DNA from: a virus
Length of the DNA stretch: 64,000 nt
Virus record (IMG/VR): IMGVR_UViG_3300034358_000044
Coordinates: 131,736-195,735 of that record
Direction: 5' to 3' (one strand)
Shown here: positions 8,869 to 64,000 of the stretch, in pieces
Numbering within the stretch: position 1 is the first letter of the stretch
How the letters are laid out: each line of letters begins with the position of its first letter
Notes under the pieces: generated by a model
Seen by the model: the letters and a program-made list of their open reading frames with translations, nothing else
What the model was told of the DNA's origin: nothing
Databases searched by the model: none
Made by a program: the position numbers and the translations under genes

Positions 8869-8896
8869 CTTATGCCGAAGCGTGGTGCAGAGTTGC
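8869..8896 (-). promoter_or_regulatory. Conserved bipartite phage promoter, copy 1
   Basis: Minus strand GCAA-CTCTGCACCACGCTT-CGGCATAAG; same spacing as the other copies. Confidence 0.65.
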
Positions 8897-57784: not shown

Positions 57785-57832
57785 GAGAGCTAAACAGCGA
57801 GGCGATGTCGCTCAACCACCGCCTCAAGCTGT
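57785..57832 (-). terminator. Hairpin terminator with TTAGC tail
   Basis: GAGAGCTAA then AACAGC-GAGGCG...CGCCTC-AA-GCTGTT. Confidence 0.6.
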
Positions 57833-58053
57833 TACTCCGCCATCCTGCGAATATCATCCAACCGGATGATCGCAGTGACGAAGTCGACCCTGTTCGCACG
57901 GGCGAACCTGAAGACCTCCAGCGGATCGAGCTGGAAGTCCTCCGCGTCCTTCACGCGGTCGGGGTGGAGATGGTTCACTTCGATGGCACCCTTTGCCATC
58001 CGCTGAGCTCCTTCAGCCCATGCGTTGAACCGTTGGGTTTTGCACTTGGACAT
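57832..58053 (-). CDS. 73-aa hypothetical protein
   Basis: MSKCKTQRFN start at 58053 with AGGAG SD (the ORF-track start at 58278 runs through the promoter). Confidence 0.65.
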   Translation of the reverse strand: MSKCKTQRFNAWAEGAQRMAKGAIEVNHLHPDRVKDAEDFQLDPLEVFRFARANRVDFVTAIIRLDDIRRMAE

Positions 58054-58183
58054 AGAACTCTCCTGAGCCTGTGGCTCGGTGTCTTCCCATTTCACCTGTC
58101 CTGGTGTCGGCCTGCGTGAGCGGCCAATGTTCCCGGGGGTCAGAGCCCGGTAATCAGAAAGAGAAAGTTCCCTCTGATATACC

Positions 58184-58211
58184 CTTATGCCGAAACCCAC
58201 GTGACTTTTGC
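58184..58211 (-). promoter_or_regulatory. Conserved bipartite phage promoter, copy 5
   Basis: GCAA-AAGTCACGTGGGTTT-CGGCATAAG. Confidence 0.7.
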
Positions 58212-58236
58212 TCTTGATGGTGGCTAGCCTTGGGGC

Positions 58237-61570: not shown

Positions 61571-62548
61571 TCACTCTTTCTTTGGGTAGTCCGCCTTGAT
61601 CGAGAGGGCTCCTTCCTCTATGGCCTTATCGATGAGGACCATGAGTATGGGGCCTGCACTCTCAAGGTTGAGGGCACTTCGAGCGCACTTCATACAGATG
61701 AAGTGTCTCGCGATGGAGTGCCTGAGGAGGTGAATCTCGTCGTACTCACTGGAAAGTGTACGAGTTCTCACCTCCTCTCCACAGGCTCGGCAATGGAACT
61801 CGACCTTCAAGATGCGGGAGAGCGAGGCTTCCACCTTGAGGACGCGCTCAATGATGGGCCGCGTACCGTGGAACGGCTCTGTAGGAGTCGTGCCCTTATG
61901 AAGGTTCTGGAGATAGCTGTGGAGCTTCTCCTTCCACCAGTCGGTCTCATGGTCGATGTCCGACTCTTTGTGAAGCTTGAGAGCAAACTTCGCCAGGTCG
62001 AGTCTGTCCATCTTCTGGAGCTCAAGCCTCCTCTCCATCTTCGGTTTGAGCTTCGCCTTGGCTGCGGCCTTGCGGATAGCTCTCAGGCGTGCGGCTCTTT
62101 CCTGCTGCTCCTCCTGCTGTTGAACGCGCTCTTCGTGATCCTGCTGCATCCGTATTCCCGAGAGGCACTCAGGACAGGTTACCTGTTCCACCTTCTCGGC
62201 CATTGTGAAGAGGGGGATGTGCGAGAAGTGATGAGGCCAATGAATCATCAGCCGTTTCGCGTTGCAGCTATGACAGAGTGTGTAGGGAGTACCAGTTTCA
62301 ACACTGCTTGCCTGAAACAGGTCCGAGAGATGGTATCTCTTGTTGCTGAGGCACCCATCGCATCGATAAAGAGGCTGAACCCGTCTTTCCTCCTTGCCGA
62401 GTGCCTCCAAGAGGGCGTCGCCCGTAAGCAGCTCATCTTTTCGATCCGGTCTCAGCTCATGGAATCGGACTGTGCGCCAAGCGTGCTGGGAGTCACCAAG
62501 TCTTATACGTAGTGCCTCCAAGAACTCTGCATCTGGATACAAACCCAT
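61571..62548 (-). CDS. Multi-CxxC (Zn-finger) hypothetical protein
   Basis: CDGC, CHSC, CPEC, CRAC, CMKC plus a coiled-coil region. Confidence 0.65.
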   Translation of the reverse strand: MGLYPDAEFLEALRIRLGDSQHAWRTVRFHELRPDRKDELLTGDALLEALGKEERRVQPLYRCDGCLSNKRYHLSDLFQASSVETGTPYTLCHSCNAKRLMIHWPHHFSHIPLFTMAEKVEQVTCPECLSGIRMQQDHEERVQQQEEQQERAARLRAIRKAAAKAKLKPKMERRLELQKMDRLDLAKFALKLHKESDIDHETDWWKEKLHSYLQNLHKGTTPTEPFHGTRPIIERVLKVEASLSRILKVEFHCRACGEEVRTRTLSSEYDEIHLLRHSIARHFICMKCARSALNLESAGPILMVLIDKAIEEGALSIKADYPKKE

Positions 62549-62600
62549 GTGGATCCCTCTTTCCGCCCTCTTGAGGGCGTGGGTGAAATGGTACTCCGTC

Positions 62601-62628
62601 CTTATGCCGAATCTGATGTCGCATTAGC
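62601..62628 (-). promoter_or_regulatory. Conserved bipartite phage promoter, copy 8
   Basis: GCTA-ATGCGACATCAGATT-CGGCATAAG, 53 nt upstream of the 62548 start. Confidence 0.65.
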
Positions 62629-62742
62629 GTCACCCTGATTGACTCTGGGCTGTGCCTCGAAGGACGATGTGAGACGCAGCAGCTACTTGGGGGTGGGCGC
62701 AACGCATGCAGGAATGCCACGCACGGTAGCCAGGAGTCACCC

Positions 62743-62892
62743 ATGCTCGATGAGAACTCTGAGACTAAGGTCGAAGGTGAGCGTCTTCAATCGCTCTTCG
62801 AGTATCTCTCCACCATGAGGCAAGAGTCGCTGGCAAAGGTGGATGAAGTCCTCAAGAAGGTGAAGGCCAAGAAGAAGCCCTCAGAGGGCTAA
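62743..62892 (+). CDS. 49-aa hypothetical protein (below the ORF-track cutoff)
   Basis: AGGAG SD; MLDENSETKVEGERLQSLFEYLSTMRQESLAKVDEVLKKVKAKKKPSEG; typical codon bias. Confidence 0.55.
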   Translation: MLDENSETKVEGERLQSLFEYLSTMRQESLAKVDEVLKKVKAKKKPSEG

Positions 62893-62918
62893 CAAAAGAG
62901 AGTGGTGTTCTCTCTCTT
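62884..62918 (-). terminator. Hairpin terminator with TTAGC tail
   Basis: GAGGGCTAACAA then AAGAGAG-TGGTGTT-CTCTCTCTT. Confidence 0.65.
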
Positions 62919-63116
62919 GCCTTCCCACGTGAGCTTGTGGCTCATGGGTCCCTGAAGCGGGCACTCGTAAGTGCTCCGCCTGGGCCAACTGCTTGCGGTA
63001 CTACTTACCGGTACTACTTGGGGTGTTGCTTTTGTCTGGACCCTATCCCAGCTTGAAACAGAGGGCACTCCCCATCGCCGGTTGGTTCCGGCCTGCGAGC
63101 GGCTATACTCTGCCGC
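62893..63116 (-). ncRNA. Candidate ~225-nt structured non-coding RNA
   Basis: Bounded by promoter copy 9 and a TTAGC terminator; at least five hairpins; no ORF with a usable SD. Confidence 0.5.
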
Positions 63117-63122
63117 TACATT

Positions 63123-63150
63123 CTTATGCCGAAAGGCGAGTCACTTTTGC
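63123..63150 (-). promoter_or_regulatory. Conserved bipartite phage promoter, copy 9
   Basis: GCAA-AAGTGACTCGCCTTT-CGGCATAAG. Confidence 0.7.
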
Positions 63151-63153
63151 TCT

Positions 63154-63190
63154 GACGGCTAACAACAAAGGGGAGTCCGTTCTGCACTCC
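63154..63190 (-). terminator. Hairpin terminator with TTAGC tail
   Basis: GACGGCTAACAACAAA then GGGAGT-CCGTTCTGC-ACTCCC. Confidence 0.65.
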
Positions 63191-63200
63191 CCCCTGCTGC

Positions 63201-63626
63201 TCAGCGCAGAGGCACGCCACCGAAGCCGTTGGTGTTGCCCGGCGCCGTGGCCCCCACGACCTGCTCCTTGCCCTGCAGCGCCTTCTTCACGGCCTGAGCG
63301 ACCTTGCGGTCGAACTCCGCCTCGGCGGCCTCCTGCGCCTTGCGCTCACGCATCGCCAGCCCCTCGTGAGCGAGCTTGCTGAGCTCGTCCACGTCGTTGA
63401 TGAGAACGCCCTTGCTGTCGTAGATGCCCGAGAGGGTGGCCTTGCTGGGCTTCTTCTTCGACTTGACGAAGTCGATGATGGCGGGCGCGGCCACCAGCGC
63501 CAGGGGCAGCAGCGTCATCAGCACCAGTCCTGCAGTGCTGGGGGCCTCGACCTCGACCGGCTCGGGCTCGGTGGCGTCGTGGATGGCGTTCTTCACCGCG
63601 TTGGTCAGCTTGTTCATGAAGGTCAT
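63201..63626 (-). CDS. Single-TM hypothetical protein
   Basis: 141 aa; AGLVLMTLLPLALVAAPAII; has its own promoter and terminator. Confidence 0.65.
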   Translation of the reverse strand: MTFMNKLTNAVKNAIHDATEPEPVEVEAPSTAGLVLMTLLPLALVAAPAIIDFVKSKKKPSKATLSGIYDSKGVLINDVDELSKLAHEGLAMRERKAQEAAEAEFDRKVAQAVKKALQGKEQVVGATAPGNTNGFGGVPLR

Positions 63627-63689
63627 AACGTCTCCAACTCCCTGTGGGAGTAACGAACGAAGGACTTGAGTGTCCTTTGCTGTTACTGC

Positions 63690-63717
63690 CTTATCCCAAA
63701 AGAGAGCTCACTTTTGC
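63690..63717 (-). promoter_or_regulatory. Conserved bipartite phage promoter, copy 10
   Basis: GCAA-AAGTGAGCTCTCTTT-TGGGATAAG. Confidence 0.7.
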
Positions 63718-63896
63718 TCTGGAGGAGGCTTGCTGAAGTCTATGACCTTCTTCAGCAGCTTCGCCTTCTTCTTCATCTCTGCGCACTGGGCCAGCAGCTT
63801 GTTGTCCTTGGGCGCCTTGAGCTTCTCTACCTCACCAATCCACTTGATGAGCTCGTCGTACTGCACCTTCACCCGCTCTAGAAGCTCGTCGTTCAT
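63708..63896 (-). CDS. 62-aa helical hypothetical protein
   Basis: GGGGA SD; typical codon bias. Confidence 0.6.
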   Translation of the reverse strand: MNDELLERVKVQYDELIKWIGEVEKLKAPKDNKLLAQCAEMKKKAKLLKKVIDFSKPPPEQK

Positions 63897-64000
63897 TGTG
63901 TCCCCTGTTGGCTAATGGAAGGGGGCGTTGTGCCCCCAGCCATGCTACCTTGTCTTCTTGAGAGGTGGCAGCTCAAGCGGTGGCATGGGCGGACTGAATA

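Follow-up and report, generated by a model that had tools for sequence, protein, structure and literature searches.

The stretch of DNA analysed here (hereafter the window) is the final 64 kb of a 195,735-bp phage record in IMG/VR (IMGVR_UViG_3300034358_000044) that is rated 100% complete, and the element under study is a short minus-strand unit at 63153-62891 of the window, which runs from a predicted promoter through a 5′-terminal hairpin and an apparently non-coding body to an intrinsic terminator. Positions are those of the window unless they are called genome positions. The right end of the record is ~0.9 kb away, and the unit belongs to a row of small minus-strand cassettes whose genes are ORFans, without relatives in the databases searched: the neighbouring proteins of 141, 325 and 73 amino acids (aa) had only self-matches among 5.8 billion proteins, zero relatives in IMG/VR and zero Pfam or PHROG family. 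The region is an early-type hyperplastic region of the phage.

The phage itself has a GC content of ~59%. Near-unchanged copies of its population are present in six peat metagenomes, and in contigs from four other peat DNA runs the sequence of the unit is identical throughout, with zero variation; among the sequencing runs listed for this DNA, none was of RNA. Its RNA genes comprise at least 35 tRNA genes, a TROVE/Ro60 gene and a non-coding Y-RNA-like array upstream of Ro60; with a near-complete tRNA set, the phage is unusually RNA-rich and invests heavily in RNA biology.

Boundaries of the unit and its promoter family

Upstream of the unit, the 141-aa gene (63626-63201, minus strand) ends in a terminator at 63162-63200, a hairpin of -26.4 kcal/mol (z = -6.1) whose tail TTTGTTGTTAGCC runs directly into the promoter of the unit, forming a terminator-promoter joint. 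The promoter (63122-63153, minus strand) consists of AGAGCAAAAG (63153-63144), a 10-nucleotide (nt) spacer and TTCGGCATAAGA (63133-63122), from which transcription would start near 63117-63115. The 5′-terminal hairpin that follows on the same strand, AGCGGC-AGAGTATA-GCCGCT (63098-63117), has a predicted energy of -10.7 kcal/mol (z = -3.1). At the other end, the intrinsic terminator T1 (62891-62921, minus strand) is made up of an A-rich arm, the loop AACACCA and the arm CUCUCUUUUGU with a U-tract, and at -14.6 kcal/mol (z = -4.1) no shuffled sequence was equally stable.

The tail of T1, TTTTGTTAGCCCTCTGAG, repeats the joint TTTGTTGTTAGCCGTCAGAG that precedes the promoter of the unit, and the match breaks inside the -35 block. 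This truncated second joint, GTTAGCCCTCTGAGGGCT (62876-62893, minus strand, with a small hairpin of -8.3 kcal/mol), agrees over its first 14 nt at 12 positions with GTTAGCCGTCAGAG of the joint before the promoter; past the break, the sequence is the antisense of the last codons and the stop of a 49-aa gene on the plus strand (62743-62892), which is coding-like and convergent with the unit. A truncated joint after T1 implies that another promoter of the same family would once have followed the unit, and it suggests that the rearrangement which brought in the plus-strand 49-aa gene cut this former promoter inside its -35 block. The unit would then be an entire cassette, with a full joint on one side and the truncated one on the other.

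The promoter belongs to a bipartite family with the consensus (A)GCAAAAG-N15-TTCGGCATAAGG, the two blocks being GCAAAAG and TTCGGCATAAGG. In the whole genome, GGNATAAG with an upstream (A)GCAAAAG-N15-TTC occurs in 24 copies on the minus strand and one on the plus strand. Copies inside the window are found at 63697, 63130, 62608, 60681, 59678, 58191, 57764, 42014, 12758 and 8876, so that seven family promoters are crowded within 57.7-63.7 kb. They precede minus-strand units, often with a hairpin and a T-rich, TTAGC-terminated tail directly before them, and most promoters of the 24-copy family are followed by a 5′ hairpin. On the plus strand, the complement of the unit's own 5′ hairpin together with the complement of its -10 block (63098-63117) scores as terminator-like; the 5′ hairpins after the family promoters at 8876, genome 128078 and genome 973 likewise come with T-rich tails and TTAGCC.

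The promoter of the unit fits the family consensus in both blocks, and its nearest relative in the family is the promoter at 58191, in front of the 73-aa gene, with which it is identical at 22 of 38 non-core positions (mean 13.7 ± 3.3). A search for relatives of the phage through its RNA polymerase yielded three fragments. The closest, G001 (23.9 kb; RNA polymerase 82% identical at the amino acid level, ~75-80% DNA identity), does not include the region of the unit; an orthologous promoter in it retains the 5′ hairpin and both blocks but has a diverged spacer, as would be expected if the bipartite promoter is functional. The other two fragments, with 42-44% identity, are without the promoter motif. 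A scan for sigma-70 promoters found nothing at the family sites, and since the family blocks are not sigma-70-like, a phage sigma factor or RNA polymerase may read them. The unit thus appears to possess its own, presumably active, promoter of a phage-type family.

One family member precedes ~480 nt of non-coding Y-RNA-like sequence that ends in a strong terminator upstream of Ro60, from which it follows that the family serves non-coding units as well as mRNAs. This array (L120:6140-6625, minus strand, corresponding to genome ~86,140-86,625) stands directly after the tRNA array and is built of repeated GAGC-YGA ... CUUG helices that remain below the Rfam gathering score; the TROVE/Ro60 gene lies at genome ~84,500-85,430 (minus strand).

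Coding potential, structure and leader similarity of the body

In a codon log-odds model trained on 73 long open reading frames (ORFs) of the phage, coding windows of 59 codons score 0.38 ± 0.19 per codon and off-frame windows -0.31 ± 0.19; the neighbouring small genes (73-aa, 49-aa, 141-aa and 62-aa) score 0.39 to 0.72, and the three frames of the unit -0.03, -0.08 and -0.19. If a micro-protein were encoded, it would have to be an 18-aa ATG frame (62945-62889), a 10-aa ATG frame (63075-63043) or a 59-aa GTG frame (63068-62889). It is true that one frame is open through the entire unit, that AGGGA stands 3 nt 5′ of the ATG at 62945, and that the region of this ATG aligns with the Shine-Dalgarno sequence (SD) and ATG of a leader at genome 17795, but the 59-aa frame scores only -0.12 per codon (2.7 standard deviations below coding windows), with a GC content at third codon positions of 0.60, where the four small genes nearby range from 0.70 to 0.93 and the 325-aa gene has 0.66. 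Moreover, the SD spacing for the GTG and the two ATGs is 0-3 nt, as opposed to 4-6 nt in neighbouring genes, and the stop codon common to the 18-aa and 59-aa frames (62891-62889) is located at or beyond the U-tract of T1, so that a transcript carrying either frame would lack a stop codon. The GTG frame also contains a 13-nt duplication (described below), whose period is not a multiple of three and would shift any reading frame, and no frame of the unit has a Pfam match. A micro-protein is, on these grounds, very improbable. A tblastx comparison of the unit with the whole phage found no remnant of any phage gene, and excising one copy of the 13-nt repeat opens no frame by inspection. As far as codon score, third-position GC content, SD spacing, stop position, duplication period and tblastx can tell, the unit is non-coding.

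Within the body, all on the minus strand, the sequence offers the hairpins GCCGG/CCGGC (63092-63077) and CTGG/CCAG (63051-63036), then an imperfect tandem duplication with a 13-nt period, AAGTAGTACCGGT / AAGTAGTACCGCA (62996-63019), in which the 11-nt repeat AAGTAGTACCG occurs twice (63019-63009 and 63006-62996). The chance of an 11-nt repeat with a 13-nt period within 225 nt is ~0.002 by our own estimate. The repeat contains the palindrome TACCGGTA, and in the minimum free energy (MFE) fold the duplication forms a small hairpin, CGGTA-AGTAG-TACCG. The strongest interior hairpin, GCGG-A-GCACT-TACG-AGTGC-CCGC (62957-62979), appears in both the MFE and the centroid folds, and it is followed by a ‘pentaloop’ hairpin, CCCA-TGAGC-CACAA-GCTCA-CG-TGGG (62924-62948; -7.4 kcal/mol, z = -0.8), behind which an SD-like GGGAAGG (62926-62920) leads to no start codon.

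It is the hairpins at either end, the 5′ hairpin and T1, that give the fold of the whole unit its z of -3.0. For the core (63096-62920), z is -1.1, and for the middle (63075-62945) it is -0.9, as compared with -0.69 ± 1.44 for random windows of the genome; the interior hairpins are no more than GC-rich sequence yields by chance, the core is ordinary for this genome, and its structure is a weak sign of selection. The preliminary description of this locus had named an Rfam search as a check; with Rfam 15, neither a search of 56-64 kb with E values up to 10 nor one of the whole window at the gathering score assigned any part of the unit to a family. ARAGORN detected no tRNA or tmRNA in the window. 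An identity as Y RNA or YrlA was considered and rejected: apart from the missing Rfam match, the unit contains neither CTTG (the CUUG strand) nor a strand GAGC-YGA nor a loop that starts with GGUUAYC, and without these it has no Ro60-binding helix.

The closest counterpart of the unit elsewhere in the phage is the front of the cassette at 58054-58225 (minus strand), which comprises a promoter (-10 block at 58194-58183) and the 127-nt leader of the 73-aa gene (58053-57832). Two blocks are shared. Block 1, GCCGCT-CGCAGGCCG-GA-ACCA (63083-63103, minus strand), recurs at 58124-58102, and with small gaps the similarity reaches ATGGG.AG at about 63071. Block 2, the pentaloop hairpin, has its counterpart at 58077-58065, where GAGC-CACAG-GCTC is followed by AGGAGAG and ATG (58077-58051). 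The sequence GAGCCACARGCTC is found only twice in the 196-kb genome, once in the unit. As regards the gene itself (57832-58053, minus strand), the public gene call is a 55-aa version from an internal ATG; the ATG at 58053 has a better SD (GGAGAG, 4-nt spacer) and yields 73 aa.

Taken singly, the blocks are within chance for a search space of 392 kb: block 2 has a blastn E of 25, and block 1 was not seeded. The two blocks are, however, collinear within one 127-nt leader, which itself stands behind the most similar promoter; a gapped local alignment of block 1 has a score of 26, a value reached by 17 of 3000 random windows and 25 of 3000 shuffles, and the chained alignment of the unit with the 58180-58054 leader scores 44.5 (25.6 ± 4.9 in random genome windows, with 1 of 3970 reaching 44.5). 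This leader ranks best of 23, with a single-comparison p of ~3e-4, or ~0.01 when corrected for 23 leaders. Leaders are in general dissimilar to each other. The second-best, at genome 17795 (130 nt, minus strand), reaches a chain score of 41.2 against 63105-62940 of the unit, aligning ATAGCCGCT, AGTAGTAC..CCGCAA and its own SD and ATG (TTCAAGGAC....CCATGA) with TTCAGGGACCCATGA of the unit, and these shared pieces hint that leader modules may have been exchanged between distant cassettes. Elsewhere in the genome, promoters and leaders are clearly paralogous between the adjacent cassettes at genome 2378 and 2709 (minus strand; chain score 83, background 26), which are likely a recent tandem duplication of a cassette front.

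Between blocks 1 and 2, the unit has ~130 nt to which nothing in the 58053 cassette corresponds and part of which resembles the genome 17795 leader, so that the unit would be a mosaic of leader pieces, not one deleted copy. Block 1 is found in different predicted structures in the two RNAs, a difference more in keeping with common descent, or with a single-stranded site for binding, than with a shared fold. All in all, the relation of the unit to the leader of the 73-aa gene appears to be real but modest.

Hairpins with a CAYWR loop, the class to which the pentaloop had been assigned, are not enriched genome-wide (29 on the minus strand, 33 expected). Directly before an SD and a coding-like start, 8 of 49 are found, as compared with 4.9% of all hairpins with a 5-nt loop (odds ratio 3.9, p = 0.002, for a class defined after the fact). 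These eight, all on the minus strand, are located at 63646, 61503, 60631, 58073, 12718 and 10441 of the window and at genome 20886 and 12563. In every one of them the loop ends in G (CAYWG), which allows a C-G closing pair and hence a triloop, as predicted by ViennaRNA for the copy at 58073, and in several of them the SD serves as the 3′ arm and pairs with an anti-SD 5′ arm (CTCC...GGAG). In G001, the 12718 hairpin has an orthologue with a different stem (CCCC/GGGG) around CACA, and this change of stem around the same loop hints that the CAYWR element may be real. In the unit, the loop CACAA has A as its fifth base, with which a C-G closing pair is impossible. With a single, weak CAYWR hairpin and an SD-like site that no start codon follows, the unit falls outside the start-proximal class, and its hairpin is probably best seen as a diverged homologue of the one at 58073, not as a typical class member.

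Much of the preliminary description is borne out by these results. It had proposed a self-contained minus-strand unit, which is indeed bounded by a family promoter and T1; its hairpins, direct repeat and shared blocks are all present where it placed them, as is the pentaloop with no start codon after it. Its claim that the unit holds no gene agrees with the codon score, SD spacing and stop position, which leave no credible ORF, and the proposed relation to the leader of the 57832-58053 gene is supported by the chained score and by the nearest promoter at 58191.

Origin and possible roles

The reading that we favour, with confidence somewhat short of even, is that of an orphan, leader-derived, probably transcribed non-coding cassette made by shuffling. 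Transcription would start near 63117 from a promoter of the 24-member family, the RNA would open with the family's 5′ hairpin and continue through ~190 nt coding for nothing, and it would end at T1 (62921-62891), giving a non-coding RNA of ~220-225 nt. Its body would be a mosaic, in which the 5′ part and an operator-like hairpin correspond to the leader of the 73-aa gene (58053), the middle resembles the genome 17795 leader including its SD and ATG region, and the 13-nt duplication would have arisen by slippage. The most plausible origin is an orphan leader left by recombination among terminator-promoter joints, similar to the gene shuffling by promoter-early stem-loop (PeSL) elements in T4-type phages. 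Being an early transcript, it may compete for a binder of its sister leader, although its maintenance for such a role is unsupported. The anatomy of the unit, its lack of coding signal, the family membership of its promoter and the modest paralogy can be read from the sequence itself; origin by recombination, transcription, RNA ends and any function are inferred.

Several points weigh against this reading. Transcription and both ends of the RNA are predicted from motifs only, and an intact promoter and terminator are equally expected of a maintained RNA gene and of a recent scar. The statistics of paralogy are modest (~0.01 and 0.05 after correction for 23 leaders), and the shared blocks were noticed after the fact. 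Excision of the PeSL type leaves a single chimeric joint and not a 190-nt body (PMC2839356), so that an extra event must be assumed. Finally, phage records, IMG/VR and metagenome contigs yielded no relative with this region, which makes decay and conservation indistinguishable. Specifically, blastn of 62500-64000 against 50,697 phage records gave no match; a metagenome scan anchored on the 326-aa protein gave no relative; another for the -10 block with the 5′ hairpin returned 89 loci, none similar to the phage; and four pattern scans of IMG/VR returned chance matches or nothing.

The main competitor is a selected trans-acting small RNA, which would either titrate a protein or an RNA as a decoy of the leader or operator of the 73-aa gene, or regulate mRNAs of host or phage by base pairing. 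In its favour, promoter, 5′ hairpin and terminator are all intact around a non-coding unit, phage genomes are compact, and this phage is RNA-rich, with a Y-RNA-like array under the same promoter family; in addition, the blocks are common to one specific leader, including the hairpin beside its SD. The details of the RNA are less encouraging. There is a single putative binding hairpin where known protein sponges have many repeats, it is weak, its loop departs from all eight start-proximal copies, block 1 is predicted to fold differently in the two RNAs, the degree of structure in the interior is ordinary, no Rfam family was matched, and the 13-nt slippage repeat suggests relaxed constraint. Nor is there outstanding complementarity to any phage transcript: across 582 candidate translation-initiation regions the most favourable duplex energy was -76, as compared with -65 to -71 for shuffled units (a method too crude for interpretation), and the best antisense match in the genome is 17 of 18 nt (E = 0.32). 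No CsrA gene was found in the phage, and no RegA match either, in a search that lacked a positive control; some other binding protein may still be conceivable. Overall, a selected trans-acting RNA is a possible but doubtful explanation, and its most specific form, a selected early RNA that mimics the phage's own mRNA leader (in promoter type, block 1 and SD-adjacent hairpin) and titrates its binder, is quite unlikely. In particular, the preliminary suggestion of a sponge for a pentaloop-binding protein does not fare well, given one hairpin only, with a loop ending in A where 8 of 8 end in G, and a class that is modestly enriched. Its other suggestion, an empty cassette whose gene was deleted, is better supported, in that the cassette is gene-less; what does not stand is a simple deletion of the 58053 cassette, since ~130 nt would be left without a counterpart.

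Alternatively, the locus might be silent spacer with relic motifs, or an element acting at the DNA level, such as a recombination joint or a protein-binding repeat. The lack of relatives, the statistically ordinary interior, the palindrome within the repeat and the position in a recombination-prone set of cassettes all fit, but the promoter matches the family consensus in both blocks, the terminator is strong and the repeat has only two copies, which leaves this explanation unlikely. The convergent arrangement with the 49-aa gene on the plus strand raises a further scenario, in which read-through of T1 in either direction would produce complementary RNAs and the unit would control the 49-aa gene, or be its 3′ untranslated region, as in type I toxin-antitoxin or cis-antisense systems. 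The coding-like 49-aa ORF has its end a single base from T1, the arms of T1 are A- and U-rich on both sides, and the terminator-like plus-strand sequence at 63098-63117 would bound a 225-nt 3′ untranslated region fully complementary to the unit. The tail of that ‘terminator’, however, is merely the complement of the -10 block, T1 has no U-tract on the plus strand, no plus-strand promoter was recognised upstream of 62743, the transcripts as drawn overlap only inside the terminator, and the 49-aa protein, being hydrophilic and rich in Lys, differs from the membrane toxins of type I systems. A sense/antisense pair is therefore improbable.

If the RNA is made and active, it would exemplify leader mimicry as a means by which a lytic phage regulates early genes of its own, with an mRNA-leader decoy; such a mimic would determine when or how strongly the 73-aa gene is translated, and perhaps other hairpin-bearing early genes too. 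It would also enlarge the already rich RNA repertoire of this phage. Under any of these accounts, the defined promoter family and the cassette boundaries are useful for annotating the phage.

Comparison with known systems

Sponge RNAs of the CsrB/RsmZ type carry many repeated protein-binding sites, by which they titrate their protein. The unit resembles them as a predicted untranslated RNA with a hairpin and an SD-like site as in the mRNAs that would be regulated, competing for the same factor. It differs in having a single atypical hairpin instead of many repeats; GGA occurs in it 6 times by our count (~4 expected), in a phage without a CsrA gene. Type I toxin-antitoxin systems were considered as a model and rejected, as there is no small hydrophobic toxin (the 49-aa product being hydrophilic) and the two transcripts are predicted to overlap in the terminator alone. 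Like the unit, the Y-RNA-like array of the phage has a promoter of the family, a non-coding body and an intrinsic terminator at its end, but it consists of Ro60-type helix strands, of which the unit has none.

Phage small RNAs that are transcribed independently, each from a promoter of its own to an intrinsic terminator, are the subject of reviews (PMC12197685, PMC10884466). Similar to such RNAs, the unit is a short, putatively non-coding promoter-to-terminator unit that is probably transcribed with the early genes, and it shows the features of a candidate stand-alone small RNA gene, namely a promoter-like family member of its own, an intrinsic terminator and no credible ORF. In contrast to them, it is predicted from sequence, with no identified target or seed and no Rfam family.

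The system that comes closest to the favoured reading of a shuffled, orphan cassette is that of the PeSL cassettes in the hyperplastic regions of T4-type phages, where recombination at joints inserts or excises ORFans (Arbiol et al. 2010, PMC2839356; Comeau et al. 2014, PMC4122927). There are clear differences: the promoter family of the unit is not sigma-70-like, the phage may not be of the T4 type, and a non-coding body of ~190 nt lies between the joints here, as opposed to the one chimeric joint after PeSL excision. The joint architecture, moreover, is read from one genome, as the 23.9-kb G001 fragment lacks the region. The likeness lies in repeated composite terminator/promoter joints on one strand, clustered among small ORFan genes and flanking single cassettes, with a similarity from joint to joint that makes recombination plausible. 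If the unit is only a scar, it would be a marker that the joints of an uncultured phage recombine and leave transcribed debris behind, and it would extend the PeSL idea beyond T4-type phages and sigma-70 promoters.

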